From a virus (lineage: Duplodnaviria > Heunggongvirae > Uroviricota > Caudoviricetes), in IMG/VR virus record IMGVR_UViG_2563366855_000007, positions 1 through 14,521 of that record: DNA of 14,521 nucleotides; one strand, 5' to 3'. The position numbers and the translations under genes are program-made. This document shows, one piece after another, positions 1-14,151 of the stretch; positions within the stretch are counted from its first letter, which is position 1; each line of letters starts with the position of its first letter. Under the pieces are notes generated by a model that saw nothing but the letters and a program-made list of their open reading frames with translations, was not told the origin of the DNA and did not search any database.

Positions 1-411
1 TCAGTTCCTATCCTTCCAGTTGCCTTCCTGCAGCCCCCCCTCCCTGCTGTATACCCCGGTACCACAACGCGGGCAGCACTTTTCTCCTTCATAATCTTCG
101 TCACACATCACACAAAACCACTTTCTCACCTTCACCGTATAATCCGGAACCGTCATACCCTGCAGATGCAAACGACGGGCCTCTTTCTCTGCCGGGTCAA
201 GCCAGGTGCATCGCAGCAGGATTTTCTCAGCGACAGTCATCTGGTCATGTTCAAACCACGGTGGTTGTCCGTCATTGCCCCGCTGAAGTGTTAACGGGCA
301 TCCACAGGACACACAGCACAAAACGTCCTGGCGGTTGTGCTTCGCTGCTTCTTTCGCCGTAACAAAATGGCCTTTGCTGTCATTCGCCATATAACAGTTC
401 AGAATTCGCAT
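1..411 (-). CDS. Zinc-ribbon protein, paralog A (about 136 aa), function unknown
   Basis: ATG at 409-411 preceded by AGGAGG Shine-Dalgarno; TGA stop at 1-3. Several CxxC pairs and a PWFEH motif shared with the neighbouring ORF 399..800. The longer track ORF (to 498) has no RBS. Confidence 0.55.
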   Translation of the reverse strand: MRILNCYMANDSKGHFVTAKEAAKHNRQDVLCCVSCGCPLTLQRGNDGQPPWFEHDQMTVAEKILLRCTWLDPAEKEARRLHLQGMTVPDYTVKVRKWFCVMCDEDYEGEKCCPRCGTGVYSREGGLQEGNWKDRN

Positions 412-800
412 ATTTCCTCCTGAGTTGTCCGGGGAATACTGAATCCTCCGGTCTGGCAGTGTGTGCAGTACCGCTCCCCATAATAATCGTGGTGACATTG
501 TCTGCAGTGCCAGCTGGCTTTACGCACCACGGGTAAGGCATCCGGTACGAATTGCTGCAGACGTTTAATCAACTGTATTTCTCTGCGCTCCGGCCTGACA
601 TAAGGGCACTGTTGACCGTGCTCTGTCAGCCTGTCGTCAGTGTGTTCAAACCAGGGAAGTTCAGTGTCGTATTGCGGATGGTATCTGAGTGCACTGCCAC
701 ACAAGTGGCAGGTGTAGTGAGCATAAGGTGCGGCCTGTACAGTACGGGCGCCCGTCAGACGTCCGTTGCTATCAAGAGCGAGAAAGGATTTTGCGTACAT
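399..800 (-). CDS. Zinc-ribbon protein, paralog B (133 aa), function unknown
   Basis: ATG at 798-800 with AAGGAA-like SD; stop at 399-401 overlaps the start of paralog A by 13 nt (coupled). Shares PWFEH and the W-x-C-x2-C ... Y-x-G-E ... C-x2-C-x-T-G layout with paralog A. Confidence 0.55.
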   Translation of the reverse strand: MYAKSFLALDSNGRLTGARTVQAAPYAHYTCHLCGSALRYHPQYDTELPWFEHTDDRLTEHGQQCPYVRPERREIQLIKRLQQFVPDALPVVRKASWHCRQCHHDYYGERYCTHCQTGGFSIPRTTQEEICEF

Positions 801-965
801 AGTATATGTTCCTTACCGTCAGACGACACGCAGGCAACAGCCGTCCCGGTACGGGCAGCGTGGTCAGGTGTGAATGGCGGTTTCAGTTCAGTCTCATAAG
901 GGAAAATCAGTGTGGTGGCCATGAACACGTCATCACACTGAAGTCAGATAACTCGTCTGTCTGGC

Positions 966-1535
966 TCAGCCACGACTGCAGCCAAAGTTGCGCTCATCGG
1001 TGCAGTGAGCTTTGGTATGCTCCTTCGCCAGATAGTCAGCACGTTCCAGCACTTGCTGAAAGCCGGTGTCATCATTACGCGCCAGCCACACCGCCGGCCA
1101 GGCCGGAAAATGCACCAGCGTGGCATGGCATCCGGCATCCACCCCCAGGGCACTGCACCAGGCCTGTTCAATCATTCCGGCCAGTGATCCCGGAGCGCGG
1201 TAATCACCGGCACGACACCAGGTATCCCGGTTGACCAGCAGCATCAGATGATAGTGTTTTTTACCTTTGCACTCCCCAAACTCCCGGGCCCAGACGTAAT
1301 GCAGAGTGGTGGGATGCACGCGTTTACCTTCCCGATGCTTACGTTTCTGGTAAGCGTCGATTCGGGCTTTCAGGGCATTGATGAAGCGGGATATCACAGC
1401 TGCGTCCGTTGCTGCCGGTACATCCGGGAAACGCAGGTCAACCCGCAATGCCGTCAGGCGGGGATGAACATTCAGTGCGTGCCGCACTGTCTCACGAATA
1501 CGTTGCTGCCAGAAGGGGTTGTATTTGTAGGTCAT
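966..1535 (-). CDS. YfjJ/YagK-like (inovirus Gp2 family) protein
   Basis: ATG at 1533-1535 with GGAGAT SD 6 nt upstream (the track start at 1571 is a GTG without RBS). N-terminal YKYNPFWQQRI and RVDLRFP motifs recalled from the YagK/YfjJ family of E. coli cryptic prophage islands. Confidence 0.65.
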   Translation of the reverse strand: MTYKYNPFWQQRIRETVRHALNVHPRLTALRVDLRFPDVPAATDAAVISRFINALKARIDAYQKRKHREGKRVHPTTLHYVWAREFGECKGKKHYHLMLLVNRDTWCRAGDYRAPGSLAGMIEQAWCSALGVDAGCHATLVHFPAWPAVWLARNDDTGFQQVLERADYLAKEHTKAHCTDERNFGCSRG

Positions 1536-1667
1536 GGTTAAATCTCCGTATGGTTCATACGGAATAGCCACGTCGTAAAAAATGCGCAGAGTCCCTGAAG
1601 TGACCTCCGGCAGGGCACTGTCTCAGGCACTCTGTGATAACCCGAACGGTCGTCTCCGGACTGACGG

Positions 1668-1696
1668 TTGAATTTTCAGCGTTGTTTTTTTAATGT
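1668..1696 (+). promoter_or_regulatory. Sigma70-like promoter for the small zinc-ribbon gene
   Basis: TTGAAT (1668-1673), 17-nt spacer, TAATGT (1691-1696); about 40 nt upstream of ATG 1735. Confidence 0.4.
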
Positions 1697-1734
1697 AAAA
1701 AACCGGTTACGGGTAAGGCTGTGAGGAGGGAGTG

Positions 1735-1935
1735 ATGGTGATACGCAAAAAGAAGTGCAGGGACTGTGGAAACGCGATTACTCATAATACAGTGTGTTGC
1801 CCGTATTGTGGTTCTGTCGACCCCTTCGGCTATTACCGGAATACAGACCGTATCGTTACCATACTGCTGGCACTGATTATTGTGGTCCTGCTGACTACTG
1901 TCAGCGTCAGTGTGTATATACTGTGTAGCTGGTGA
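1735..1935 (+). CDS. Small zinc-ribbon membrane protein (66 aa)
   Basis: ATG 1735 with GAGGAGGG SD at 1723-1730. N-terminal C-x2-C ... C-x2-C zinc ribbon (CRDCGN...CPYCGS) followed by one hydrophobic helix (IVTILLALIIVVLLTTVSVSVYIL). Confidence 0.55.
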   Translation: MVIRKKKCRDCGNAITHNTVCCPYCGSVDPFGYYRNTDRIVTILLALIIVVLLTTVSVSVYILCSW

Positions 1936-2265
1936 GATAACGGTTCATGTATCCCCTGAGCTGACAGTGTACCGGGTATATTAAGCGTAACCGACAGGTT
2001 CTCCTTCATACCATATTAAATTTTTCCAGGTATTGCCGCTGCCTTATTTCGTCCCATACAGGAAAACTCGTCTGGGTTTCTGACAAATACGCGAAACTCA
2101 CAGCCCCTCAATATCAACCACACGCCGTAAGCCGGTAATACCTGATCAGACATGAGATAAATGAAGGGGGATCCGTGAGATAAATAACGAATTGGAGTGG
2201 GTTAACATGGGTTCTGGTGAACAGAACTGAAATTCTTTTCCGCTATACGATAGATAAGTCGGGCA

Positions 2266-2295
2266 TTGAAATCATCCTTCCTGGCAACTTAGAAT
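2266..2295 (+). promoter_or_regulatory. Sigma70-like promoter upstream of the 53-aa ORF
   Basis: TTGAAA (2266-2271), 18-nt spacer, TAGAAT (2290-2295). Confidence 0.35.
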
Positions 2296-2338
2296 CGAGT
2301 TTGCTGAAACATGACCCGCAACAAAAAGGATGATTCCA

Positions 2339-2500
2339 ATGACTACTCAAAACAATAAGCATGATAGCCTGGATTACTCAGAAAAGCCCAAAAGCAAGCA
2401 CATCGTGACGTTCGAGCGCGATTCCGGTAGAAAAGGAGAATCGTCTTCCTCTGCCAATAAAACCACTATGCCGGCAGCCCCTGCCCCAGGGAAAAAATAA
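2339..2500 (+). CDS. Hypothetical small hydrophilic protein (53 aa; below the ORF-track size cutoff)
   Basis: ATG 2339 with AAGGA 8 nt upstream, TAA at 2498-2500, candidate promoter upstream. Product MTTQNNKHDSLDYSEKPKSKHIVTFERDSGRKGESSSSANKTTMPAAPAPGKK is low-complexity; an in-frame alternative ATG lies at 2330. Confidence 0.25.
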   Translation: MTTQNNKHDSLDYSEKPKSKHIVTFERDSGRKGESSSSANKTTMPAAPAPGKK

Positions 2501-2503
2501 ACA

Positions 2504-3136
2504 TCATTCATCGTTCGTTGCACGAACGCGCCTGATCTCCACTCTGGCAATCTGATCTGCTGGAATATAGGTTGCCAGAGCTCCCCAGTACTTATCAACC
2601 ACGCCTTTATACTCTTCCCATTCGTTACTGCCTGAAGGGCTGCTGTGCGTGACGTAAAGAACCATATCGCCTTTATTCCCCTGGGTAAACGGACCGTTAG
2701 GCCACTCTTCAAAGTTCCCTGGCAGCCGTGACATCATACCGGAACCATCGCGAAGAATCACTCTGACCTCGGTAACGCTGAAGCCTGTTTGATCAAACAT
2801 TGCCTGCCATGCTGAGCTGGTATCGTCAGACCATGAAATATCATTATTCCACAGTAATCTGTACATCCATTTGCGACCGTACCTGCGCCACCACGCACCG
2901 CATGTAACGGCACACAGAAGTGCTGGTGGTGTTGCCAGCCAGGCATTCAGACCTGCCCACATAACAGCCTGGTAAGCCATCATTGCTGTCAGGCCAAAAA
3001 TCAGCGAAGAAAAAGTCACCTCAATGGGCTTGTGGTGATCCTTCAGTCCCACATTCGCAATAAAATACCCAATATAGCCACTGGTCAGGGTCACCAGTGT
3101 TGCCCATGGCAGATTTAACAACGAAACGTCAAACAT
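2504..3136 (-). CDS. Membrane protein: three predicted N-terminal TM helices plus about 125-aa soluble C-terminal domain; function unknown
   Basis: ATG at 3134-3136 with GGGAGA SD (alternative ATG at 3151 has poor spacing; track start 3214 is TTG). Hydrophobic segments LPWATLVTLTSGYIGYFIANV, VTFSSLIFGLTAMMAYQAVMWA, WLATPPALLCAVTCGAWW. Confidence 0.6.
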   Translation of the reverse strand: MFDVSLLNLPWATLVTLTSGYIGYFIANVGLKDHHKPIEVTFSSLIFGLTAMMAYQAVMWAGLNAWLATPPALLCAVTCGAWWRRYGRKWMYRLLWNNDISWSDDTSSAWQAMFDQTGFSVTEVRVILRDGSGMMSRLPGNFEEWPNGPFTQGNKGDMVLYVTHSSPSGSNEWEEYKGVVDKYWGALATYIPADQIARVEIRRVRATNDE

Positions 3137-3173
3137 ATTTTCTCCCTGCATCCTGAATACTAAAGAGAGAGCA

Positions 3174-3209
3174 TAAAAAAAGCACGGTAAGGGGTCTACC
3201 GTGCTTTTA
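3174..3209 (-). terminator. Rho-independent terminator ending the Mor operon (possibly bidirectional)
   Basis: Perfect 10-bp stem (3180-3189 / 3197-3206) with 7-nt loop. On the minus strand it is followed by a run of six U; on the plus strand by a shorter T-run (tttt). Confidence 0.7.
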
Positions 3210-3250
3210 TACAATAAGGAGATTTTTGAAAGGACTTTAACAAGCAGGAA

Positions 3251-3649
3251 TTATCTGGATTTGTTAACGTCTTTCGTCTCCTCTGGCAGATCTTCATCAA
3301 ACAACCTGCCCTGCATCCGATCCAGTTCTTCTTTTCTGACCCGCTTAACCACGCTGTAGACCCACTGAAGCGAAACACCAAACTTGCGGGCCAGTTCGTG
3401 GTGGTTGCGTCCGTTAAACTCCCTGAAGATTTCCCGGTCGCGCTGACTGACCTTCCATACCATGCCCATCGGGAAATAAACGTTTTGCCCGCCCCAGACC
3501 TGCATCATTCGGTTCGCGACGGCCTGACCAATCTGGTCGGCAATTGCGGGCTCAATATCAATAATCTCGCGAACGGTCTCAGAGGTATGCTGTGCCAGCT
3601 CCACCAGGAGTTCCGGCCCTTTACTTCGAAACTGATTCAGGTCGCTCAT
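3251..3649 (-). CDS. mor: Mor-family transcriptional activator (Mu middle operon regulator homolog)
   Basis: ATG 3647-3649 with GGGAG SD. Motifs GGQNVYFP ... RDREIFREFNGRN ... LARKFGVSLQWVYSVVKR match the Mor/C family pattern recalled from Mu Mor. Confidence 0.85.
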   Translation of the reverse strand: MSDLNQFRSKGPELLVELAQHTSETVREIIDIEPAIADQIGQAVANRMMQVWGGQNVYFPMGMVWKVSQRDREIFREFNGRNHHELARKFGVSLQWVYSVVKRVRKEELDRMQGRLFDEDLPEETKDVNKSR

Positions 3650-4073
3650 GTTTGACTCCCGCAGCTCTGCGCTGCCACTTCTTCAGTTTCTCAATAACAC
3701 TGCTTGCCTGTTCAGTACTGAGCCAGCGCAGGGCGCTGATGCCCGTTTCCCGCTTGATCCACCGCGCTAATGCATTTTCTGAACGGTCACGAACAATGCC
3801 GGCAGCAGCCATTTCAAGCCATAGCGCACGGATTTTCCTGGACTGCGGATGGTTATCCAGCGGTAAACCGGAGCTGGCTTTTCCGGCAGGCTTAACGCGA
3901 AAGCCTTTCCTTTTCATGGATTCCAGCACGCAGTTTAGTTGTGTGGTATCCATTCCTTTGGTTGAGGCTTTACCGGTCAGCCCCTGTAACATCTGGCGGT
4001 AGGTGTCTTCATCCATACCCAGTTCATTACGGGCAATATGAATGAGCTGGATAAGACGTTGTTTAGTCATCAT
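3621..4073 (-). CDS. gemA: GemA-like protein (Mu gp16 family)
   Basis: ATG 4071-4073 with AAGGAG SD; 3' end overlaps the mor start by 29 nt. N-terminal RLIQLIHIARNELGMDEDTYRQMLQGLTGKAS resembles the gp16/GemA family. Confidence 0.78.
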   Translation of the reverse strand: MMTKQRLIQLIHIARNELGMDEDTYRQMLQGLTGKASTKGMDTTQLNCVLESMKRKGFRVKPAGKASSGLPLDNHPQSRKIRALWLEMAAAGIVRDRSENALARWIKRETGISALRWLSTEQASSVIEKLKKWQRRAAGVKHERPESVSK

Positions 4074-4278
4074 CGTTGCTCCTTTTACCTGCGCCACCGA
4101 TATAATCGACATATAAAGGAAGCGCCACAGGCCAGCACAGGAACATCACCGACCAGCTAATCCAGTAGCCGGCACCACTGTAACGTGAATAAAACCCTGA
4201 ACGGCGGTGCAGTTCAGCAGTACACCAACCGACAAAACAATACCAGAACAGGGCACATACAACAGATTCAGCCGTCAT
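4063..4278 (-). CDS. Small two-TM membrane protein (71 aa)
   Basis: ATG 4276-4278 with G-rich SD; overlaps the upstream ORF stop by 11 nt and the gemA start by 11 nt (coupled). The hydrophobic sequence MTAESVVCALFWYCFVGW ... WISWSVMFLCWPVALPLYV supports the two-TM call. Confidence 0.45.
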   Translation of the reverse strand: MTAESVVCALFWYCFVGWCTAELHRRSGFYSRYSGAGYWISWSVMFLCWPVALPLYVDYIGGAGKRSNDDD

Positions 4279-4498
4279 TCTGAATATCCCCCCAACTGAT
4301 ATGAATATTACGGGCAGCAATGACAGGGTCGTTATTCCACCATGCACCTGACATGTATTTTTCAACCTGTTCGCGTCCGGCAATAACACCAATTGTGATC
4401 CCCGGCCTGACGTTCTTAAAAAAGGCGCGGGCAAAAAGGTATCTGGCAGATATTCGGCAGGCTTTTAATTTCCGGCTGTTACCTGATAGCGTAATCAT
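4268..4498 (-). CDS. Hypothetical protein (76 aa)
   Basis: ATG 4496-4498 with GGAGG SD; ATGA stop/start overlap with the upstream gene. Confidence 0.45.
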   Translation of the reverse strand: MITLSGNSRKLKACRISARYLFARAFFKNVRPGITIGVIAGREQVEKYMSGAWWNNDPVIAARNIHISWGDIQNDG

Positions 4499-5178
4499 CT
4501 GGCCTCCAGTTTCTGTTGTTCCTGCCCACTGACCGGGCGGTGCAGTCTGACGTTCTGCCCTTCAAGAAACCCCGCATAGCGCGAGGCGTCGCCATTGCGG
4601 CTTCTTCCCGGTTTACGCGCCCTGGTGGTTTGCGTCTGCGGGTATTTATGTTCCAGCCACTGCTGCATCAGTTCACGTTCGTCATCGGTCAGGGCGAAGG
4701 ACTGTATTTCACTGATAACGGCCAGCACCCAGCCTTCAGCAAACTGGTCACCACGGCTGGTACGGGTGGCAGTTTTTATTCTTTTGTTCTGTGCGCTGAT
4801 ATATTGCTGACGCGCCTTTTTCAGCTGGCGGGCCAGCACTTCCCAGGTGTACGCAGCCAGTGCAGCCCGTTCCCGGTTGCCGTAGAACCCCACACCCGGA
4901 TATGTGCCGGGGTGAATGATGGAGTTAACACCAAATGCCTCGCGGATGATGTTCATCAGGCCCAGCATGTAGCGCGGTGGACGGAGGCTGCCTGTCGGCC
5001 AGTAGTGACTGATGGTTTCATCAATATCACTCATGGCGATGTCGGAATGTGTGATGCCGTGAACATCCATCAGTTTACGGGCACGGCGCAGTGCCAGAGC
5101 GGCCTCGTGAGGGTTGCCGGATGCGGCCAGCGCCAGCAACTTTTTCAGTTTCTCAATGTGTTTATCCTGGTCTGTCAT
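4495..5178 (-). CDS. DUF2786-like protein (227 aa)
   Basis: ATG 5176-5178 with GGAGAT SD; ATGA overlap with the upstream gene. N-terminal KLKKLLALAASGNPHEAALALRRARKLM resembles the DUF2786 signature (from memory). Confidence 0.6.
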   Translation of the reverse strand: MTDQDKHIEKLKKLLALAASGNPHEAALALRRARKLMDVHGITHSDIAMSDIDETISHYWPTGSLRPPRYMLGLMNIIREAFGVNSIIHPGTYPGVGFYGNRERAALAAYTWEVLARQLKKARQQYISAQNKRIKTATRTSRGDQFAEGWVLAVISEIQSFALTDDERELMQQWLEHKYPQTQTTRARKPGRSRNGDASRYAGFLEGQNVRLHRPVSGQEQQKLEAR

Positions 5179-5480
5179 TGTTCAGTATCTCCGGTGTACA
5201 TGACGCCCAGCCGTGCGGCAAGGCGTTCCAGTTTTTTCTGTTTGTGGAAGTCAATCAGCCGGTCCATTCCCTGAAGGCGCAGTTGCTCTGTCATGATTTC
5301 CACGTCTGCCAGCTCTGCCGCGAGGTCACTTTCGCTGCCCTGTCCGTTCAGATTGCGGGCAGCACTGGCCGCCAGTTCAGCGGCCTCTTCTGTCAGTTTC
5401 AGGGCCTGTGCGTCCGGCCCGAAACGCTGCAGGGCCAGACGGTAGAGGGCGGTGCGGGTGAGTATGGTGTTCCGTGTCAT
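5175..5480 (-). CDS. MazG-like nucleotide pyrophosphohydrolase family protein (101 aa)
   Basis: ATG 5478-5480. EEAAELA ... AAELADVEIM acidic helix pair is typical of the all-alpha MazG-like NTP-PPase fold. Confidence 0.55.
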   Translation of the reverse strand: MTRNTILTRTALYRLALQRFGPDAQALKLTEEAAELAASAARNLNGQGSESDLAAELADVEIMTEQLRLQGMDRLIDFHKQKKLERLAARLGVMYTGDTEQ

Positions 5481-5489
5481 GCCGCGCCC

Positions 5490-5762
5490 TCAGTGCTTCC
5501 GGCTGACGGTGATGTGCAGGCCGCCTTCTGCAGTGGTTTCCATCCGGTACGGCACCTCATGCTCTGCCGTGTGGGTGAGTGTGTTCACCAGTACCTGCAG
5601 GGCAGCCGCCTTTCCGTTGGTCGCCACAATGGCCTGAGCGGTCATGCTGATTAGCGCCGTCAGGACGTGCTTCACATCGGTGAGGTCGCGGCATTCACAC
5701 TCGTTGACATAGTGTTCAACAAGGGTTCGGGTGCGCTGTCGTGCTTCCTGTGGGGTAATCAT
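5490..5762 (-). CDS. Hypothetical protein (90 aa)
   Basis: ATG 5760-5762 with GGGAGGA SD; ATGA overlap with the upstream zinc-ribbon ORF. Confidence 0.5.
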   Translation of the reverse strand: MITPQEARQRTRTLVEHYVNECECRDLTDVKHVLTALISMTAQAIVATNGKAAALQVLVNTLTHTAEHEVPYRMETTAEGGLHITVSRKH

Positions 5763-5953
5763 TGCGAGTCCTCCCTGTCAGGGCGGGAGAATTCCATGAC
5801 GGGCACGTCTGCCGAAAAATGCTGGCTGCAGTACGGGCAGACCAGGGTGACGCGTACCGCAGGGATGTGGTATTTACCGGACATCACGGCGATGGCGCTG
5901 TGAAAACGCAGGGCTGTTATATCCCTCTCGCACTGAATACATTTAAATATCAT
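5759..5953 (-). CDS. Small zinc-ribbon protein (64 aa)
   Basis: ATG 5951-5953 with GAGGAGA SD 8 nt upstream. C-x2-C (CIQC) ... C-x2-C (CPYC) arrangement. Confidence 0.5.
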   Translation of the reverse strand: MIFKCIQCERDITALRFHSAIAVMSGKYHIPAVRVTLVCPYCSQHFSADVPVMEFSRPDREDSQ

Positions 5954-6050
5954 GATTTAATTCTCCTCTGTTTCCGGCGTGCAGAAGCCCGCGGCGCTGA
6001 CGTCGGAATAAAAAAGAAAATGTTTTTATTAAATAATTAACGTGGTGTGT

Positions 6051-6581
6051 TTACTGCACATCCTGCTCAAAAGGAATTATTGAAAAATCCTCAATGTCGC
6101 TTTTAATGGAAATACCGGGAATATTTTTCACGGCCTCTTTTTCATTCAGGATAGCGTCTTTATTTATTTCCTCTTTTACACGAATAAAGCGCTCAAGCCC
6201 CAGACGTCTCAGTAATTCAATAACATTATCCGCCCCACGGATACTGACTGATGGCGGACGGTTTCGCCACTGCACCTCGCCGGTGGTGAGGTTAGCGAAC
6301 TTCACCTTCCCGTTGCCGGTCAGTTCATCACGGTGTGCCTCACACCATGTCTGAATACCGGACTGCAGTTCGGCCATGCGTTTTTTCAGGCTCTCGGTGA
6401 GCGGGGCATAACGTGCGGTGATATCGCCAATGGCGTCATTCATTTCTGTTTCAGCCCTGACCAGTTCACGTTGTGCGTCACCGAGTAGTCTGATTCCCTC
6501 AATGACCTCTTCACGTGTCCCCGGCACCCAGAGTGCTGCTGCGGCCTTGATACGTTTTGCACCTTTTGTACTTTTTGCCAT
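6051..6581 (-). CDS. gam: Gam (Mu-type host-nuclease inhibitor, DNA-end binding) homolog
   Basis: ATG 6579-6581 with GGAGAAA SD. MAK..KRIK.AAA..VP ... ETEMNDAI ... WCEA.RDELT..GKVK.ANL.TG.V.WR.RPPSVSIRG ... GL.RF.R.K.EINK.AIL ... SIIPFEQ matches Mu Gam as recalled, near full length. Confidence 0.9.
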   Translation of the reverse strand: MAKSTKGAKRIKAAAALWVPGTREEVIEGIRLLGDAQRELVRAETEMNDAIGDITARYAPLTESLKKRMAELQSGIQTWCEAHRDELTGNGKVKFANLTTGEVQWRNRPPSVSIRGADNVIELLRRLGLERFIRVKEEINKDAILNEKEAVKNIPGISIKSDIEDFSIIPFEQDVQ

Positions 6582-6608
6582 TTTTTATGATTTCTCCAGT
6601 TGTGCTGA

Positions 6609-6878
6609 TTACCACAAAGATTCCGGCCACACGACGCGACAGCCGTGCAGTTCGAAAACGCCCTGACGGAAATATCCCCTGTGGTCATGTCCGGTATACA
6701 GATAACAGGCCTTTCCCTGCTCAAGCATGCGCATGCAATGCGCACTCCGGGAAACGCGGATGACAGGTTTGTTACCCCTGATGGTGATGCTTTGTACATC
6801 CGTGTTCGTCGCCTTAAGCGCCATAATGGCTGACTGCACTTTGCTGATTTGCTGGTTGATACCTGTGGTGGATTTCAT
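6609..6878 (-). CDS. Hypothetical protein (89 aa) in the position occupied by kil in Mu
   Basis: ATG 6876-6878 with AAAGGGG SD, 3 nt downstream of the B-like stop. No recognisable motif; the kil analogy is positional only. Confidence 0.45.
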   Translation of the reverse strand: MKSTTGINQQISKVQSAIMALKATNTDVQSITIRGNKPVIRVSRSAHCMRMLEQGKACYLYTGHDHRGYFRQGVFELHGCRVVWPESLW

Positions 6879-6880
6879 TA

Positions 6881-8047
6881 TTAAACCCCTTTGACAACGT
6901 CAGCGTTGACCTGTGGAACCCCGATTTCAGCGGCCAGATTCATGGCGGCTATTACCAGGTTACTGACGGCCAGCGGATACAGCAGGCTGACCATATTTTT
7001 ACGGTGACTTCCCGGATTGCTCAGGCGGGCACGTATGGCATCCACTGCACCGGCGTCCATAATGTCCGTCAGCTGTTTACCGGCCCGTTGCAGTTTGAAC
7101 GTCAGAAATTCTTCAAGGTTATTGTCCAGAGGCAGAAGTTCGACCACCTCACAGCGCTGAACGACTTCACGGACTTCCATATTGCGTTCAGACAGTTTTG
7201 TCGCCAGTTCCGGCTGGCCAATCAGCACGATGGACAGCAGTTTTTTGAAACCGGACTCCAGCTCAAAAAAGCGTTTGAGGTGTTTCAGTGTCGGAATGGG
7301 CAGACTGTGGGCCTCCTCAATCACCAGAACGTGGCTGAACCCCGCCTGGCTGCTGTCTTTCAGGACGCGATGCAACTGGCGAAAACGGGCGTCCTGACTG
7401 CGTCTGATGCTTTCCAGTGGTGCGATGGTACTGATAATGGCTTCGGCAATAGCTGCTGCCTTCAGGGTTTTCCCTTTCACATCGTTGTCTTCCATAGCGA
7501 TGATGTATGGCTCGATAACAATTACCGGCGCATTCTCGCGGTTGATACGTTCAGTCAGGTCGCGGCGCAGCGTGGATTTACCCGCACCGGACTCACCGAT
7601 GACGGCCATAAACCCACCATGACGGGCTGTCTGGTACAGCGCCTCACGCACGTAGCGAATGTCCGGGGTGGTGAACACATCATCAGAACCCTGCATGGCT
7701 TCGTCGGCGAACGGGTCACGGAAAAGACCAAACGCTTTTTTGGTTGCTGGAAATAACACCTGTTTTTTGAGTAACATATTCTCTTCCTCACTGAGGCTCG
7801 TTTTATCTGTGGTACCCGCTGTACGGGGCGTGGCCGCGCCCTGTACAGCATCAAAACTCTTCGTTGTATCAATCCCCTGACTTTCCAGCCAGGACGCAAG
7901 ACGCCGGCGCACTTCTCCGGGGCTGGTGCGGGGCCACGCGTTATGATTCACAATCTGGGCCAGCGTGGCCTCAGAAACATCGACAGCTCTCGCCACCACC
8001 GCCTGTGGAATACGGGCCTCTTTCAGTTGCTGCTTCAGTACCAGCAT
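6881..8047 (-). CDS. Transposition ATPase, MuB-like (AAA+ with N-terminal HTH)
   Basis: ATG 8045-8047 with GAGGAGGG SD that spans the A-like stop (track start 8086 is GTG with no SD). Walker A GESGAGKS, Walker B-like VLVIEEAH, N-terminal HTH (VSEATLAQIVN). Confidence 0.8.
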   Translation of the reverse strand: MLVLKQQLKEARIPQAVVARAVDVSEATLAQIVNHNAWPRTSPGEVRRRLASWLESQGIDTTKSFDAVQGAATPRTAGTTDKTSLSEEENMLLKKQVLFPATKKAFGLFRDPFADEAMQGSDDVFTTPDIRYVREALYQTARHGGFMAVIGESGAGKSTLRRDLTERINRENAPVIVIEPYIIAMEDNDVKGKTLKAAAIAEAIISTIAPLESIRRSQDARFRQLHRVLKDSSQAGFSHVLVIEEAHSLPIPTLKHLKRFFELESGFKKLLSIVLIGQPELATKLSERNMEVREVVQRCEVVELLPLDNNLEEFLTFKLQRAGKQLTDIMDAGAVDAIRARLSNPGSHRKNMVSLLYPLAVSNLVIAAMNLAAEIGVPQVNADVVKGV

Positions 8048-8057
8048 GTTTCCCTCC

Positions 8058-9827
8058 TCAGTTGCCGTTAACAATGCTGATAACACTGCTGCGGGCCGGT
8101 GTGGTCAGCGTGGCCATGACTTCATCCAGTGCGGCTTCCGGTACGCCGTCCGGGTACTGTGCCGTTAACTGGCGGTAATGTTCCGGCGTCCAGGTAAGGC
8201 CGTCGGCGCTGAACTTATCGCGCAGGGCTTTCGCGGCCTCCACATGAGTCATGGGACGTTGTTCAGTGCGCGGCCCGCGTACGTCAGAGGCCTGACCACG
8301 CTTCGGCATATAGGCCGGAAGTGTGGTGTCGTCGATATGTTTATACGGGTCAAGCCGCCCGCCGAACGGCAGCGCCTTCGCCTTGCGTGCGGCGGCTGCA
8401 TCTGCGGCGTTGTCTGTACCGGTAACCAGCGCTTCGGTTTCTTTTGCCGCCATCTGTGCCGGGGTTTCCGGCAGGGCTTTGTAACTTTCGCCAAATACCG
8501 CCGCGCCTTCAGCAAAGCCAAACTCGTTCTTTCTGACCTCTTCGACCAGGAAGAACGTCTCGTGGCCGTCCTCACCGGTCAGAACCACCTGTGCCACATC
8601 GCTGCGCCATGGGTTACGGGTAATCATCAGTTTTTCACCAACCAGTACGCCCGGTACCGTTGATACGTCAAATTCAGTGCCCCGGAACGAGACACGAAGT
8701 TTTGGCGTGACTTTGCGGAGTTCTGGTGCCGCCACAGCCAGTTCACGACATACCTCAACGGAAGGCGCTTTTTTCAGCTGCTCAGCAGTAATCTTCAGCC
8801 AGATATCCGTGCGGGTTTTACCGTGGCGGCTGTGAACAGCCGTGGCGTTAAAGTGGCTGCGCCATTTCGCGGCCAGCGCGTTGAGTTCTTCCAGACTGTG
8901 AACCGGCCGGAACTTCAGACCCGGCTCCAGCTTGCGTTCGATAATGTCACGCGCCTTTTCCACCTGTCCGGTGGCGCGGGCGTTATGCGGCTTGTGCGCT
9001 ATCAGGTCGATGCCCAGTGAGCGGCACATGTTTTTCGTCATACCCGCGGTGTTTGCCGAGCCGGGGTCGAGATAGAGTATTTTCGGCACGCCGTGCAGCA
9101 CGTCTGCGCCGCCACGCTCCTGCATGGCGTTGATAAGCACAGAACACAGGTTCTCACCTGATTCCGCGCCCGTCACATACTCAACGTAAATCCAGCCGCT
9201 GGCATGGTCGGTAATCTCGTAACTCCACACGCGGTCACTGGCGATACGGGCAAGGTTAGCGGGCTTGTTCTTGTAGAACTTCGCGCTGTCCATCACCTGC
9301 AGCCCTTTATGTCCATTGCTCAGGTAGTAAAGCGTGCAGAGTGAGGCGTCAATCTGCCAGACATGATTGGGATGCAGACTGGCCACTTCGGTATGTGGTG
9401 CAGGGGCATCCAGTTGTTCCGGGTGCAGGCCATAGTTACGCAGAGCACGGCTGATGGCATCTTCAGACAACGGGAAAAACTCACTGGTGGTTTCATCTGT
9501 TCTGCCTGCGGTGATAAAGCCGTTAGCCCGCAGGGTTTCCACTGCATCTGCGATGGAATAGAGACGCTTACCGTTCTTGCGGGTGGCCTCACGCAGTGTG
9601 GCAGATATCAGCGCGGCTTCGTCGCGGGTCAGGGCGCTGCGCCCGGCATCGGCGCGTTTTTTGCGTTTATCAGTCACAGATACCTCCTTCAGCCTGCGCA
9701 GCAGAGTGGCGCGGGACATGCCAAGTTCAGCACAGGCAGCGTCGTATACTGCGCCGCGTTTACCATGCCCCGCGTCACGTGCCGCGCGGGCGACATAAAC
9801 CAGTCGTTCAGTCAGGGCAGCATTCAT
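8058..9827 (-). CDS. DDE transposase, MuA-like (rve/integrase core; 589 aa)
   Basis: ATG 9825-9827 with GGAGG SD. Catalytic triad candidates D in HVWQIDAS, D in LYLDPGSANT, E in GQVEKARDIIERK; N-terminal HTH. Sits directly upstream of the AAA+ partner as in Mu A-B. Confidence 0.85.
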   Translation of the reverse strand: MNAALTERLVYVARAARDAGHGKRGAVYDAACAELGMSRATLLRRLKEVSVTDKRKKRADAGRSALTRDEAALISATLREATRKNGKRLYSIADAVETLRANGFITAGRTDETTSEFFPLSEDAISRALRNYGLHPEQLDAPAPHTEVASLHPNHVWQIDASLCTLYYLSNGHKGLQVMDSAKFYKNKPANLARIASDRVWSYEITDHASGWIYVEYVTGAESGENLCSVLINAMQERGGADVLHGVPKILYLDPGSANTAGMTKNMCRSLGIDLIAHKPHNARATGQVEKARDIIERKLEPGLKFRPVHSLEELNALAAKWRSHFNATAVHSRHGKTRTDIWLKITAEQLKKAPSVEVCRELAVAAPELRKVTPKLRVSFRGTEFDVSTVPGVLVGEKLMITRNPWRSDVAQVVLTGEDGHETFFLVEEVRKNEFGFAEGAAVFGESYKALPETPAQMAAKETEALVTGTDNAADAAAARKAKALPFGGRLDPYKHIDDTTLPAYMPKRGQASDVRGPRTEQRPMTHVEAAKALRDKFSADGLTWTPEHYRQLTAQYPDGVPEAALDEVMATLTTPARSSVISIVNGN

Positions 9828-9830
9828 TGG

Positions 9831-10742
9831 TTATGCCTCCAGCCCGTTAATCTGTGGCGTCGACTCAGTCAGCCATGAAGGCGCTGCATTGCCTGTTGGC
9901 TCGTCCGGCAGGTCAAATGTGGAGCGCAGGCTACGCGCTGTGCTTTCCAGTTGACAGACCAGGCCTGCCATGAAGTCTCTGGGGGTATCAATCATGTTTT
10001 CAGCACAATATGCGCACAGCGTCTCAAAAGCGCTGGACAGTCGGACGGCGATGGCAGATTCCGCCTCAACCGCTAATGCTGTTACTTCCGCCCGCAGCTT
10101 CTTAACCTCCTCATCAGGCTCAGGTGGCTGAATACGGGATTTCTTCTCCAGTCTGGTGGAGAGTGAGTCTATTTTTTCATTTTTGTCGGCGAGTACGCGC
10201 TGTTGTGCTGCGTTGGTTTCGCGCGCTTCGCGCAGGGCCTGACGCAATTCACGTACTGACATGCGATCAACATCGTCAAGCGTCAGTCCGGCAACTGTGC
10301 CACCGTCGGCCAGTTCAGCAAGGTCGTCGTCATCTTCAGCAACAAGTTCAAATAATTTTGCCTTACCTAAAAGCGACAACGTTGTCGCTTTTGGCTCTAG
10401 TTTTGGTGAAAGGTATTTCAAAGATGCTTTCATCATTCGTTGTGCTGCGCGCACATGCAGACCAAGTTGTTCTTCTACAATTCCAACAAAGTCCCCGTGA
10501 GGTTCATTTTCTTTGAGAATAATAAGTCGTTTACCTGCTTCCAGCATGGCCTCAGCGCTCTGTGCCATATAAAACCGAGCCTCATGAACTATGCGATCAC
10601 GCTCATAGGGCTGACCATCGCCAAACTGCTGCATGATCTCCATACGATGCTGTGTCATGGCGTTCAGACTGACATTGAGATCATCCGACAGCGGTACCTC
10701 GGCGTTCAGTTCAGTGTTAATCGGTGATTTGGTGCGTCCCAT
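9831..10742 (-). CDS. DUF3102-like protein (303 aa) with acidic linker and coiled-coil
   Basis: ATG 10740-10742 with AAGGAG SD; stop 3 nt before the A-like start. IVHEARFYMAQSAEAMLEAGKRLIILKENEPHGDFVGIVEEQLGLHVRAAQRMM resembles the DUF3102 core (from memory). Confidence 0.55.
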   Translation of the reverse strand: MGRTKSPINTELNAEVPLSDDLNVSLNAMTQHRMEIMQQFGDGQPYERDRIVHEARFYMAQSAEAMLEAGKRLIILKENEPHGDFVGIVEEQLGLHVRAAQRMMKASLKYLSPKLEPKATTLSLLGKAKLFELVAEDDDDLAELADGGTVAGLTLDDVDRMSVRELRQALREARETNAAQQRVLADKNEKIDSLSTRLEKKSRIQPPEPDEEVKKLRAEVTALAVEAESAIAVRLSSAFETLCAYCAENMIDTPRDFMAGLVCQLESTARSLRSTFDLPDEPTGNAAPSWLTESTPQINGLEA

Positions 10743-10752
10743 TTATTACTCC

Positions 10753-11061
10753 TTACAAACGACTACCTGAAATGACACGTTGGTTGATTTCGTTAATGCG
10801 ATCCTGTGCACGTGCCATCTCGTTACTGTGGGCCATAGCGATCTGCAGTAACTGGATGCCCGGCGCGAAACGCCCGTTTTCCAGTTTCAGGGCCAACCCT
10901 TCTTCAATGAGGGTGTTGAGTGCCCGGTTGATGTTTGCCGGTGACTCGTGCAGTGCTGCCGCCAGTTCACCGTTGGAAATACCGTTCAGGGCATGACCGC
11001 GCAGCGCTTTGAGTACCCGGAGGATGCGACTGCCGGAGCTTGAAACATTCGTCTTACTCAT
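10753..11061 (-). CDS. Winged-helix (IclR/MarR-like) DNA-binding regulator (102 aa)
   Basis: Second ATG (11059-11061) has AAGAGG SD at good spacing; the first ATG (11067) is 1 nt from the SD. ILRVLKAL ... GISNGELAAALHESPANINRALNTLIEEGL is a classic wHTH pattern. Confidence 0.55.
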   Translation of the reverse strand: MSKTNVSSSGSRILRVLKALRGHALNGISNGELAAALHESPANINRALNTLIEEGLALKLENGRFAPGIQLLQIAMAHSNEMARAQDRINEINQRVISGSRL

Positions 11062-11113
11062 CTGCATACCTCTTTTGCGATATGTGATAACCTTTTACAA
11101 AGACTCAAAATCT

Positions 11114-11302
11114 TCAGGCTGCCTGAGCTGTTGATTTCAGCCCCAACTTCACGGCGATTTCATGGGATTTACCGTAACGGGCTTTGGTCTGCCCATTGAG
11201 AACGCGGTATACCTCATTGCGGTTGTAGCCGTTTTCTTCTGCCCAGCGGGTGAAAGTGATCCCGCGCTGGCGGAAGAGAGCTTTGACTTGTTCTGCAGTC
11301 AT
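11114..11302 (-). CDS. ner: Ner/Nlp-like small DNA-binding regulator (62 aa)
   Basis: First gene after the early promoter; ATG 11300-11302 with AAGGAG SD. Pattern RQRGITFTRWAEENGY ... GKSHEIAVKLG parallels the Ner/Nlp fold; the assignment is by position and pattern. Confidence 0.55.
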   Translation of the reverse strand: MTAEQVKALFRQRGITFTRWAEENGYNRNEVYRVLNGQTKARYGKSHEIAVKLGLKSTAQAA

Positions 11303-11349
11303 CGTTGTCTCCTTTGTTGATGCAATGATGTTTGCCTTATGTGTGATAG

Positions 11350-11378
11350 ATTATGGTGCAGATTACCTCACCAGTCAA
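11350..11378 (-). promoter_or_regulatory. Early promoter (Pe-like) in the divergent repressor/ner switch region
   Basis: On the minus strand TTGACT (plus 11373-11378), 17-nt spacer, CATAAT (plus 11350-11355), about 45 nt upstream of the ner-like ATG. The spacer contains TGCAGATTACC and a nearby AGATTA repeat, candidate operator sites. Confidence 0.55.
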
Positions 11379-11402
11379 CTTAAAGAGTGCAGAAAAACTC
11401 AC

Positions 11403-11741
11403 ATGATCGGGTTACGTATTAAAGAAGAAAGAGAGCGTCTATCTCTTACACAGCAAGGGTTGGCTGATGCTATAGGTGTGGCAAAGAGAACTTTCATTGA
11501 TTGGGAAAAAGATCGCACTTCTCCTACTGCAGTGCAGTTATCTGCACTATCAGAAATCGGTGTAGATATTTTGTATGTAGTTACTGGGGTGCGGAGTCAG
11601 CCTGTTGTTGCACCTTATGTGTCACAAGAAAAGAAAGAGTTAATGGATGCATTCGACGAAATGAGCCCCGAACAACGGAGGGCAATTCTTGAGGTCGGCA
11701 AAGTCTTCATTCAACCCAAACCAAGCAAACTCGCAGGCTGA
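11403..11741 (+). CDS. XRE-family (Cro/CI-type HTH) repressor, divergent from the early operon
   Basis: ATG 11403 opens directly on the HTH (LSLTQQGLADAIGVAKRTFIDWEKDRTSPT); weak RBS. The track ORF from 11250 begins with GTG and would run through the early promoter. Confidence 0.65.
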   Translation: MIGLRIKEERERLSLTQQGLADAIGVAKRTFIDWEKDRTSPTAVQLSALSEIGVDILYVVTGVRSQPVVAPYVSQEKKELMDAFDEMSPEQRRAILEVGKVFIQPKPSKLAG

Positions 11742-11827
11742 TTTTGACCTGGACACAAAGGACAGGTGGTTGATCTGGATGCTTTCAGAAAACATCGCCA
11801 GTGACATAGTGGAAGTTGTTTGGTTTA

Positions 11828-11859
11828 CCGGAAAGCATTGTGCTTTCCGGTTTTGTTTC
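11828..11859 (+). terminator. Rho-independent terminator downstream of the repressor gene
   Basis: Perfect 10-bp stem CCGGAAAGCA / TGCTTTCCGG (11828-11837 / 11841-11850), 3-nt loop, then TTTTGTTTC. Confidence 0.75.
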
Positions 11860-12622
11860 AGAAGTTGCAGATTACCAGTTCACGGCGCGGCGTGGATTTC
11901 CCCGCCAGACTGTAGTTGATGTTCACTGTCTGTATGTTCAGTCCAGTGAACACCTCGCGCATCTGTGGGATATCGTTCACCGAAATTATCATTTTTCCTC
12001 TGATGCACCGGGCCAGCTCTGCCAGCCGCGAGTAGTTCCCTTCAGGAAAATCCACACCATAGCCTTCCGTACCCAGGTACGGTGGGTCGCAGTAGAACAG
12101 TGTGTGCGGACGATCATAACGCTCAATGCACTGTTGCCAGTCCATGTGTTCTATGACTGTTCTGGAAAGCCGCAGGTGTGCTGCTGACAGTTCTTCTTCA
12201 ATACGCAGCAGGTTGAAGCGTGGCGGGGATGTGGTGGAGGTACCGAAGCTGTGCTCTGCCACCTTGCCGCCAAACGCCTGCTTCTGAAGGTAGTAGAACC
12301 GTGCCGCACGCTGGATATCCGTCAGTGTTTCTTCCGGGGTGATCTGCAGCCATTTGTAGATCTGACGGCTGACCAGCGCCCATTTGAACTGGCGGACAAA
12401 TTCTTCCAGGTGATGCTTTACCACCCGGTACAGATTCACCAGTTCACCGTTGATATCATTGATGACTTCGATCTTGCCGGGTGTCTTAAGAAAATAGAGC
12501 GCTGCTGCCCCACAAAACGGCTCCACATAACATTCATGCGCCGGAAACAGCGGCAGGATGTGTTTTGCCAGGCGACGTTTGCCACCAATCCATGGAACGA
12601 TGGGTAATGTCTTCATTTTCAT
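11858..12622 (-). CDS. Dam-family (D12 class) DNA N6-adenine methyltransferase, orphan
   Basis: ATG 12620-12622. N-terminal PWIGGKRRL, motif I EPFCGAAALYF, catalytic DPPY, C-terminal RRELVICNF. No adjacent restriction endonuclease candidate. Confidence 0.88.
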   Translation of the reverse strand: MKMKTLPIVPWIGGKRRLAKHILPLFPAHECYVEPFCGAAALYFLKTPGKIEVINDINGELVNLYRVVKHHLEEFVRQFKWALVSRQIYKWLQITPEETLTDIQRAARFYYLQKQAFGGKVAEHSFGTSTTSPPRFNLLRIEEELSAAHLRLSRTVIEHMDWQQCIERYDRPHTLFYCDPPYLGTEGYGVDFPEGNYSRLAELARCIRGKMIISVNDIPQMREVFTGLNIQTVNINYSLAGKSTPRRELVICNF

Positions 12623-12663
12623 AATCTGTAAGCCTTTTACAATTATTAAAAATATGGCAGGCT

Positions 12664-12770
12664 AGTCTGGTCTCGCGAGACTGACTGAACCTCGGTCGGC
12701 TCACAGCCACTTCTGTGGGACGATGGCCAGCCCGGTGGGTCCGAAGCACCGGGCTGGTCGTTCTTTCATG
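12664..12770. promoter_or_regulatory. Structured non-coding region upstream of the Dam-like gene: 12-bp perfect palindrome plus GC-rich hairpin
   Basis: GTCTCGCGAGAC at 12670-12681 flanked by AGTC/GACT; 11-bp perfect stem CCAGCCCGGTG / CACCGGGCTGG (12727-12737 / 12747-12757) with 9-nt loop, followed on the plus strand by TCGTTCTTTC. Confidence 0.35.
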
Positions 12771-12813
12771 ATGCGGCAGGGATAGTGGGATTTCTGTTAA
12801 TGTGGTTTAGGGA

Positions 12814-13029
12814 TTATCCGGGGCGATTTTCTGACCTTATCCGGTCCAGGGCATAAGTAATACCTTCTGCAAAAACAGAAGTATCAAACTGCTTTTGTAT
12901 TCCCTGAAAATGAAAAGCGGCACGACAGACACTCAGTTCTCCGCGATGTAACCGGATAATATCTTCCAGAACATTGTTCACTGCTTCAGCACGGCGCTGA
13001 TGTTCTGTTAACGTTAATCGGGGATTCAT
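12814..13029 (-). CDS. Hypothetical protein (71 aa)
   Basis: ATG 13027-13029 with AAGGAG SD 6 nt upstream; no recognisable domain. Confidence 0.4.
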   Translation of the reverse strand: MNPRLTLTEHQRRAEAVNNVLEDIIRLHRGELSVCRAAFHFQGIQKQFDTSVFAEGITYALDRIRSENRPG

Positions 13030-13432
13030 GATGCACTCCTTAAATGATGATTTTTATGCACTCACCGGCAAAATATTCTGCCGATTACTGAACACGCATC
13101 CGGCACCTCAGGTTTTGATTTATTCTGGTTTTTTCGATATCCCGGACCAGGTTGATCACGACCAGAAAAAGTGCCGGTATTTTATTGATACGCTGATATG
13201 GCTTCGGGATAACAGCTATATTCGTTACTCTCAGTTGCTGGCTGTGGGAGCGGCTGATGTCGTCCTCACGGAAAAAACGCTCCGTCTGCTCAATGCCACG
13301 CCGACCCTTCTGCAGCCCCGGCCCGCACCATTTAAAGAGTCACTTCTGGATGCAGTAAAAACCGGTGAAAATGCAGTCATCGCTGAATGCGTATCCCGGA
13401 TTATGCGTTACGTGTTTAATGAACGTAAGTGA
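13028..13432 (+). CDS. Hypothetical protein (about 134 aa)
   Basis: ATG 13028 or 13031 with a weak GGGGA SD. The start overlaps the divergent 71-aa ORF start and the 3' end overlaps the P-loop gene by 25 nt, so it may not be real. Confidence 0.3.
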   Translation: MMHSLNDDFYALTGKIFCRLLNTHPAPQVLIYSGFFDIPDQVDHDQKKCRYFIDTLIWLRDNSYIRYSQLLAVGAADVVLTEKTLRLLNATPTLLQPRPAPFKESLLDAVKTGENAVIAECVSRIMRYVFNERK

Positions 13433-14151
13433 GGTTTATCCGCTGTCTGCATAATCCCGATAGCCAGTGCGAGGGGAAGTAATTCCGGGGAAACTCTTTC
13501 AAACAGCGACTCCCATTCTCCTCTCGCCATCACTCTGTCCAGCCCGCCCCCCAGTTGCATTTCAGCAATCTTCCTGATTTCCCGGAACAACGCCGCTTTG
13601 ATCTCTTCGTGCTCAGCTTTATTTTCCGGTGTCAGAATGTATTCGTCGAAGAACCGGGGAGGCTGGTTAACGGGGAGCGTGTTCACCGGGATGTGTTCCT
13701 GTTTCCCGTACTTCGGGGCAGAAAAACATTCTGTTGGCTGACCGGTGAGTTTACGTAGCTCCTTCATGAGCAGCTCCTGATCGTAAACTGTCATCAGTGC
13801 CGCAATGGTGGCATGCAGTGCATCGGGCAGTATCCAGGGTTGCCGGCCCGTGGGGCATATAACATCCAGCAGCTCATTCGTCCGACAGATACGCTCCTCG
13901 CCGTATGACAACAGGCCCTGTCCCGTGTATTCCTCCAGCTTGATCACTGTGCCACCCCGTGGCTTCTGCCAGGTCGTCAGATCATCGCCACTCATACGCC
14001 GCTCATCATCTACGTCTGCAGCATCGACAATGACGCTGCCCCCGAATTCCTGTTTCACCACTTCCTCTATCCGCGCCAATATGTAACTTTTACCGCTGCC
14101 CACAGGACCGGACACGGTGACAGTGATGACCGGATTCAGTGTCTGCGTCAT
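13408..14151 (-). CDS. P-loop NTPase, kinase-like (247 aa), function unknown
   Basis: ATG 14149-14151 with GAGGAGA SD 7 nt upstream. Walker A GPVGSGKS immediately after an N-terminal beta strand (VITVTVSG), as in small-molecule/nucleotide kinases. Confidence 0.65.
   Translation of the reverse strand: MTQTLNPVITVTVSGPVGSGKSYILARIEEVVKQEFGGSVIVDAADVDDERRMSGDDLTTWQKPRGGTVIKLEEYTGQGLLSYGEERICRTNELLDVICPTGRQPWILPDALHATIAALMTVYDQELLMKELRKLTGQPTECFSAPKYGKQEHIPVNTLPVNQPPRFFDEYILTPENKAEHEEIKAALFREIRKIAEMQLGGGLDRVMARGEWESLFERVSPELLPLALAIGIMQTADKPHLRSLNT

Follow-up and report, generated by a model that had tools for sequence, protein, structure and literature searches.

An overlapping pair of paralogous zinc-ribbon proteins in the backbone of P4-integrase islands of Enterobacterales

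Small cysteine-rich zinc proteins are known from P4-type elements, P2 Ogr and P4 Delta being the described cases. In systems of a second kind, such as the rolling-circle module of filamentous phages (the gpII nickase with gpX and gpV) and the HUH Rep proteins or relaxases with their accessory factors, an initiator is combined with accessory proteins. A third relevant protein is CoiA, a PD-(D/E)XK nuclease needed for resolution of the D-loop in transformation (bioRxiv 10.1101/2024.02.06.579203). For its N-terminal finger the descriptions go no further than a 'putative C2H2-type zinc finger', and no role has been assigned to it (bioRxiv 10.1101/2024.02.06.579203; PMC1189080). Here we consider two adjacent, overlapping genes, which we call ZnA and ZnB, that have something in common with each of these systems. 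They lie on the minus strand at the beginning of a stretch of DNA of 14,521 nucleotides (nt), positions 1 to 14,521 of the IMG/VR record IMGVR_UViG_2563366855_000007; this whole stretch is referred to below as the window.

The likenesses are partial in each case. ZnA and ZnB differ from Ogr and Delta in that no sequence similarity is detectable, the domain architecture is another one, and neither P2/P4 structural genes nor sid or psu genes are found nearby. The likeness to initiator modules lies in the neighbourhood, where an HUH/YxxK protein and its apparently dead paralog stand beside the pair as an initiator stands beside its accessory proteins; the products themselves have no homology to gpV, gpX or the ribbon-helix-helix accessory proteins of relaxases. 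With CoiA the pair shares a sequence pattern, an N-terminal beta-hairpin (A-x-D/N-x-x-G...A) followed by C-x2-C, about 15 residues, [HW]-F-x-H and a downstream cysteine. It differs in carrying a zinc ribbon where CoiA has its nuclease domain and in the replacement of the first histidine of HFxH by tryptophan (PWFEH), and its family resides on mobile elements of Enterobacterales, whereas CoiA is found in competence regulons. Since Pfam finds no PD-(D/E)XK nuclease domain in the two products, they are not members of the CoiA family.

Both genes and their family are already catalogued: identical proteins exist in RefSeq, the domains correspond to two Pfam families, and most Escherichia coli genomes carry them. 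What we add is the conservation of the coupled pair across genera, the definition of the cassette around it (including a dead paralog of its Gp2 neighbour and a mini zinc-ribbon open reading frame, ORF), a conserved leader, and a link between profiles to the CoiA zinc finger.

Two overlapping paralogs under purifying selection

ZnA and ZnB are, in our reading, real, co-transcribed and translationally coupled genes for paralogous zinc proteins. The coordinates, strand and reading frames (Table 1) are those of the original prediction, in which every detail of the observation was correct. That prediction took the two to be a tandem, diverged pair of paralogs, and this is borne out: they align over 125 residues at 31% identity (BLASTP E=5e-16), far above chance level, and both match both Pfam models of the family. 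The two motifs on which the proposal was founded occur in both proteins. PWFEH follows the first CxxC (C31/C34 in ZnA, C33/C36 in ZnB), and W-[FH]-C-x2-C-x2-D-Y-x-G-E-x2-C-x2-C-x-T-G marks the second block.

The junction between the genes is highly constrained. The 13-nt overlap ATGCGNNTNCTGA is the same in eight genome loci (L003, L004, L005, L007, L008, L011, L012 and L013) and also in two Citrobacter loci (L019 and L020), on a Klebsiella plasmid (L023) and in other E. coli alleles; the pair with this exact overlap recurs in eight or more further genera of enterobacteria as well as on megaplasmids of Klebsiella. In the window AGGAGG stands 4 nt 5' of the ZnB start codon, and a GAGG or GGAG element is found 6-8 nt upstream of the start, within the ZnA tail, in 12 other loci. 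The overlap also explains a feature of the ZnA protein. Its C-terminal end is a conserved C-x-x because the TGC codon for this cysteine supplies the 'TG' of the ZnB ATG and the first base of a ZnB arginine codon.

Translational coupling of ZnA and ZnB, suggested originally from the overlap and the ribosome-binding site, is very likely on comparative grounds, since the 13-nt overlap and the internal Shine-Dalgarno element are kept from E. coli to Hafnia, Mixta, Yokenella and the Klebsiella plasmid despite saturated synonymous sites. Such conservation suggests that coupled, stoichiometric synthesis matters and hence that the two proteins work together.

Selection on the proteins was assessed from the ratio of nonsynonymous to synonymous substitution rates (dN/dS) among orthologs from E. 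coli, Hafnia, Mixta, Tenebrionibacter, Siccibacter, Yokenella, Apirhabdus and Enterobacter. Pairwise values for ZnA and ZnB orthologs are mostly 0.1-0.3, with dS often above 1.5; measured against the orthologs, ZnA gives 0.1-0.26 and ZnB 0.1-0.33, and most comparisons within E. coli and across genera fall at 0.07-0.2. Both genes are under purifying selection. In each genus of this set both types, A and B, are represented, which makes the duplication older than the spread of the islands that carry the pair.

The extreme C-terminus of ZnB (window 27-45, minus strand) varies among E. coli alleles: a form of 136 amino acids (aa) ends in SREGGLQEGNWKDRN and one of 144 aa in SRAWGRQEVPSEDARADNPLQRL. 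The two tails part at a G-rich run (in the window, GGGAGGGGGGG), and a frameshift in this part of the protein, which is not conserved, could account for the difference.

Domains, family and a likely link to the CoiA finger

Each protein consists of an N-terminal domain that is very likely a CoiA-type zinc finger, a helical linker and a C-terminal four-cysteine zinc ribbon. The first domain, residues 1 to about 88, corresponds to Pfam DUF7828 (PF25165), with 105.8 bits for ZnA and 106 bits for ZnB against a gathering threshold of 25.7, and is matched by all 15 aligned homologs. The second, residues 93 to about 126, corresponds to Zn_ribbon_11 (PF11682, formerly DUF3279), which ZnA matches with 38 bits and ZnB with the score given in Table 1 (threshold 24). 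The original prediction did not recognize the family. As far as databases go this no longer holds, because Pfam has both domains and PGAP annotates a 'putative zinc ribbon protein'; it stands in the sense that the family bears no functional annotation. ZnA and ZnB had no family match in NCBIfam, PADLOC or PHROGs, a literature search on the family names, the RefSeq accessions, DUF2913 and PF11726 yielded no relevant paper, and a sequence search of the PDB gave for ZnA and ZnB chance zinc-ribbon matches only (for example L37ae, E>0.5) and no fold match.

In the zinc ribbon the invariant columns of the homolog alignment are W97, C99, C102, Y106, G108, C115, T117, G118 and S121, while C112 is kept in at least 90% of the sequences; those of the N-domain are listed in Table 1. 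From this pattern C31, C34, H53, C65, C99, C102, C115 and C112 are predicted to bind zinc, and the ligand set of the N-terminal finger is probably C-x2-C...H...C.

The relationship to CoiA emerges from profile comparison. Pfam CoiA_N (PF25164) is matched below threshold by 2 of 15 members (E=0.037-0.11). When the N-domain was aligned by hhalign with the N-termini of 13 annotated CoiA proteins from plasmids, the probability was 91.9% and the score 37.5 over 50 aligned columns; 200 column shuffles gave a mean score of 9.4 +/- 2.1 and a maximum of 19.9. Control probabilities were 0.1% with the CoiA nuclease region, 0.3% with a reversed alignment and 8.7% for the family's own zinc ribbon against CoiA_N. 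B-type sequences alone reached 66% against CoiA_N. It is very likely, judging from these profiles, that the N-domain is a zinc finger of the CoiA type.

Two distant members of the family (about 31% identity) flank the AlpA gene of a Moellerella plasmid (L024, 5862-6395 and 7001-7351), the second of them unannotated. One of the two has HFFFAH in place of PWFEH and thus forms a bridge to the HFAH motif of CoiA.

The family is small: 266 matches at E<=1e-3, many of them fragments, came out of a profile search through 1.84 billion representative proteins. Many database entries are fragments or frameshifted chimeras; three long apparent 'fusion' proteins (P0004, P0012 and P0082) turned out to be chimeras produced by deletion or duplication. 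The longest member has 238 aa and no fusion to an enzymatic domain occurs among the 150 matches listed. A small family that is never fused to an enzyme in that set fits an accessory subunit.

By word-indexed search, members of full length were located in Escherichia, Salmonella, Citrobacter, Enterobacter, Klebsiella, Serratia, Edwardsiella and Lelliottia. Among 5426 complete E. coli genomes, 3812 (about 70%) carry the pair, the median being 2 copies and the highest number 7, and 2987 have a single place that covers at least 80% of the 800-nt query. K-12 CP4-44 has no remnant of the pair. On plasmids the family is rare (33 records), and three matches were found among the 2.9 million contigs of IMG/VR, one of which (L028) is a fragment of an E. 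coli island that includes IS66 and an autotransporter. In Serratia sp. Ag1 (L009, 1592-4234) the family has expanded locally, and five family-related ORFs stand in a row around Gp2 genes: two full-length divergent members, an ORF with the N-domain only and a mini zinc ribbon, then ZnA and a divergent ZnB.

A portable module of integrase islands

The original prediction described the pair as lying beside a prophage replication-type gene. The neighbour was recognized correctly, as a gene of the YagK/YfjJ-like, or Gp2, family; the prophage was not. The setting is an island with an integrase of the CP4-57/P4 type, occasionally a conjugative megaplasmid, and none of 50,697 phage records gave a tblastn match to the pair. 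The prediction also asked whether homologs always occur as tandem pairs next to YagK/YfjJ-like genes, and almost always they do. Loci were mapped with hidden Markov models and jackhmmer, one genome per species being scanned, which gave 17 loci in Enterobacterales. Fifteen of them have a Gp2-like gene upstream in the same orientation, the remaining two being fragments, and a second gene of the zinc family follows immediately downstream in 14 of 15.

AlpA belongs to the same array as the pair in the mapped loci, and two layouts can be distinguished. Type I reads AlpA - orf197 - Gp2 - ZnA - ZnB - Gp2b. Type II reads Gp2a - AlpA - 44-aa mini zinc ribbon - ZnA - ZnB - Gp2b - DUF2913, and this cassette, counted as six genes, is also carried by a Klebsiella IncFIB/IncHI1B conjugative megaplasmid. 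An intact island in Citrobacter displays the whole arrangement: AlpA, orf197, Gp2, ZnA and ZnB read toward the cargo (type I restriction-modification and Kiwa-like genes), and the integrase faces them from beyond it; on the other side are genes for a YeeP-like GTPase, YfjS/YafY, IrmA, DUF932, an anti-restriction protein and RadC. This is a classic island of the CP4-57 type, and the order of its array places the pair in the backbone, at the edge of the cargo site. Elsewhere the variable cargo adjoining the pair includes type VI secretion genes. ZnA and ZnB belong to the core, and not to the cargo, of a portable module that occurs in islands with CP4-57/P4-type integrases and on some megaplasmids. 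The E. coli islands that hold the pair are heavily decayed by insertion sequence (IS) elements and pseudogenes.

Gp2a of the window scores 159.5 bits with PF11726; no sequence homolog of Gp2 was found in the PDB. In an alignment of 17 Gp2-like proteins the upstream copies keep both the HUH motif (HYHLML, HYHAHVVF) and the YxxK motif (YLAKE). HYHLML and YLAKE are retained across Gp2a and Gp2a2 orthologs and both motifs are lost in the downstream Gp2b, which looks like a catalytically dead paralog. The module thus pairs an apparently active nuclease of the HUH type with a dead paralog, with the zinc proteins between them. Gp2b follows ZnB in many genera, often with DUF2913 after it; examples, all outside the window, are L008 6906-7454, L004 6836-7471 and L023 7900-8466.

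Table 1. Features of the minus-strand zinc-protein locus, in window coordinates
Feature	Position	Strand	Description
ZnA	399..800	-	133 aa; identical to WP_000271042.1 'putative zinc ribbon protein'; ORF translation and RefSeq coding sequence (CDS) have the same coordinates
ZnA N-domain, DUF7828, very likely a CoiA_N-like zinc finger	540..800	-	residues 1-87; invariant C31, C34, P49-W-F-E-H53, C65
ZnA C-terminal four-Cys zinc ribbon, Zn_ribbon_11	423..521	-	residues 94-126; C99, C102, C112, C115; Pfam and conserved columns
ZnB	1..411	-	136 aa; ATG 411-409, TGA 3-1; identical to WP_001221617.1 'zinc-ribbon domain-containing protein'; RefSeq CDS
ZnB N-domain, DUF7828	145..402	-	residues 4-89; Pfam E=8e-31; weak CoiA_N match, E=0.11
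ZnB C-terminal zinc ribbon, Zn_ribbon_11	40..135	-	residues 93-124; Pfam 64.7 bits
Junction, very likely translational coupling	399..421	-	AGGAGG 421-416, ZnB ATG 411-409, ZnA TGA 401-399; 13-nt overlap ATGCGAATTCTGA
Conserved non-coding leader 5' of ZnA, candidate promoter/operator	801..885	-	cross-genus alignment
Terminator-like hairpin just 3' of the Gp2 stop	903..941	-	11-bp arms 941-931 and 917-907, 13-nt loop, then TTTT
Gp2a, YagK/YfjJ 'inovirus Gp2 family', HUH-type Rep-like protein	966..1535	-	PF11726 E=1e-46; REP_ORF2-G2P E=2.6e-5; RefSeq CDS

Several smaller genes accompany the module. Type II islands and the Klebsiella plasmid have, between AlpA and ZnA, the conserved 44-aa mini-ORF MEKQRRTKPQNIPARWKCPRCRRQYCGARPCPVCFRTSVASAQP (L004 5728-5862, L008 5727-5864, L013 5730-5864, L011 5729-5863, L023 6729-6863), which resembles a stand-alone Zn_ribbon_11; the plasmid record does not annotate it, and the E. 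coli window does not contain it. An apparent fusion of AlpA to a zinc ribbon in L012 is a frameshift artefact that joins AlpA to this mini-ORF, and it offers no clue of the kind that a domain fusion would. In the window a plus-strand gene at 1732-1935 encodes a hypothetical protein of 67 aa (WP_001297900.1) that has a CxxC...CxxC zinc ribbon at its N-terminus and a transmembrane helix at its C-terminus, and whose matches are weak and only to PHROGs without known function. A truncated Hha/YmoA gene lies at 2016-2153 on the minus strand, and both of these genes are kept beside Gp2 in SE15 and Nissle.

Island DNA of E. coli makes up the window from 1 to about 2142. The rest, from about 2142 to 14521, is a Mu-like transposable prophage with Mor, GemA/gp16, Gam, an AAA+ transposition ATPase (ExeA family in RefSeq), an rve transposase, a helix-turn-helix regulator region and Dam. 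Its early operon reads toward the end of the element, which is inserted in the remnant of the Hha/YmoA gene. The same phage occurs at other sites, for example rfaH, in 84 other complete genomes; it is an insertion unrelated to the pair.

Possible roles of the pair

Several suggestions can be made regarding what ZnA and ZnB do. The one we put forward, tentatively and well short of confidence, is that they form a co-translated heteromeric zinc protein that serves as a DNA-recognition or accessory factor for the HUH DNA-processing module of the island. The two proteins would be made in fixed stoichiometry and would assemble into a hetero-oligomer. This oligomer would recognize DNA, a DNA structure or the Gp2 proteins, and would in this way direct or regulate the HUH-mediated nicking, (rolling-circle) replication or mobilization of the island after the genes led by AlpA have been switched on. 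The parts of the module would be AlpA, the active HUH Rep-like Gp2a, ZnA, ZnB and often the catalytically dead Gp2 paralog and DUF2913. That the proteins bind zinc, form a heteromer, bind DNA and cooperate with Gp2 is in each case a prediction from sequence and context; what leads us to an accessory subunit is the combination of coupled paralogs, a finger of a likely CoiA type, which is otherwise joined to a structure-specific DNA nuclease, together with a zinc ribbon and no enzymatic domain, and a place between active and inactive HUH proteins. A role in binding nucleic acids, one of the functions considered in the original prediction, would draw indirect support from the CoiA_N-type finger and from the HUH neighbour.

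A number of points weigh against this proposal. DNA binding and the contacts between A and B, and between the zinc proteins and Gp2, are predicted from context and homology, and the CoiA_N domain has no assigned function of its own. The isoelectric points of the two proteins, 6.5-8.4, are near neutral, unlike those of strongly basic DNA binders; taken as such, this charge is uninformative. YagK/YfjJ genes occur without the pair, for example in Pseudomonas islands, so that the pair is not obligatory for Gp2 function, and CP4-57 of K-12, going by the K-12 map, presumably also has a YagK/YfjJ gene and no pair. In E. coli the pair survives in IS-decayed islands whose mobility is doubtful. Finally, ZnA is set apart from Gp2 by a terminator-like hairpin and by a leader that is conserved separately, and the pair may be a transcription unit of its own. 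In E. coli this hairpin would separate Gp2 from the ZnA-ZnB unit; a terminator scan did not call it, owing to its 13-nt loop.

The leader leads to a different suggestion, that the pair are small zinc-finger activators or repressors of transcription in the manner of P2 Ogr and P4 Delta, acting on promoters of the island, its cargo or a helper phage and possibly regulating themselves through the leader. Small zinc proteins would stand here alongside the regulator AlpA in P4-type islands, and P4 Delta, in which an Ogr-like unit is duplicated in tandem, is a precedent for a paralogous pair. In addition, the leader of about 80 nt, compared upstream of ZnA in L003-L013, L019 and L023, is 75-91% identical to that of other genera, against 65-70% for the ZnA CDS, as would be expected of an operator, and it is probably a regulatory or binding site at the level of DNA. 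RNA structure in it is not supported: there is no Rfam match, covariation by RNAalifold is almost nil and the fold of the single sequence has z=0.55. Two candidate signals were set aside, namely a sigma-54-like site, CGGGAC-N5-TTGC, whose matches occur at chance frequency (19 found, 21 expected), and a 10-nt direct repeat, CGTCTGACGG, around the ZnA start, roughly estimated to be at chance level. What makes regulators unlikely is that neither Ogr_Delta (PF04606) nor any other family of DNA-binding regulators is matched in Pfam even at E<=5, that the phage records searched gave no match, that the isoelectric points are near neutral and that no sigma-70 promoter is predicted in the leader.

It can also be suggested that the two genes, or three with Gp2, constitute an anti-phage or anti-restriction system at the edge of a cargo hotspot; a small defence or anti-defence factor was one of the functions considered in the original prediction. 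The pair adjoins variable cargo, including the restriction-modification and Kiwa-like genes or the type VI secretion genes mentioned above, the same islands carry anti-restriction and RadC genes, and thousands of E. coli genomes retain an intact pair, also in islands that have decayed. Its position, in contrast to the varying cargo, is fixed in the backbone, Pfam finds no enzymatic or effector domain, and the pair is missing from the phage records searched, although phages commonly carry anti-defence genes. A search with PADLOC-DB v2.0.0 gave no match, the best being ZnB against PDC-S64 over 30 residues (E=0.067), with nothing for ZnA or Gp2. We therefore consider a defence role quite improbable.

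Two small genes that overlap might also be a toxin-antitoxin or addiction module, with which the compact layout, the mobile element and the persistence in decayed islands would agree. We give it very little credence, since the products are paralogs with the same two-domain architecture, which is atypical for such pairs, since no toxin or antitoxin family is matched in Pfam, NCBIfam or PADLOC, and since ZnB is often truncated or frameshifted beside an intact ZnA (L003, L010 and L019), which is not the one-sided loss expected of addiction. That the pair are decaying relics without a current function in E. coli, as islands full of IS elements and pseudogenes and the many fragmentary or chimeric database entries might lead one to think, is largely refuted by the low dN/dS in most comparisons, by a pair that is intact in about 3000 complete genomes and by the conserved overlap and Shine-Dalgarno element, and is hardly credible.

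If ZnA and ZnB are indeed accessory subunits, their two small proteins, the conserved leader and the conserved cassette would together provide a handle on the replication or mobilization of these islands, and the CoiA-type zinc finger would have its first functional context. If they turn out to be minor regulators, the gain would be a better annotation for two DUF families. A bolder version of the accessory-subunit proposal, which we regard as doubtful, is that the cassette Gp2a - AlpA - mini zinc ribbon - ZnA - ZnB - Gp2b - DUF2913 is an undescribed, self-contained engine for replication, mobilization or the exploitation of a helper, in which the ZnA/ZnB heterodimer would be a new factor that recognizes an origin or a DNA structure by means of CoiA-type fingers. 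The pathogenicity and defence islands concerned have an integrase and AlpA and lack genes for conjugation or packaging, and for related AlpA/Gp2 islands in Pseudomonas it was shown only recently that they are transduced by jumbo phages. Such an engine, if true, would account for the amplification or transfer of these non-conjugative pathogenicity and defence islands with P4 integrases in Enterobacterales, and of the related modules of megaplasmids. For the time being the pair shows no unusual biology; its value is that it offers a concrete point at which the backbone of P4-integrase islands, itself poorly understood, can be put to the test.

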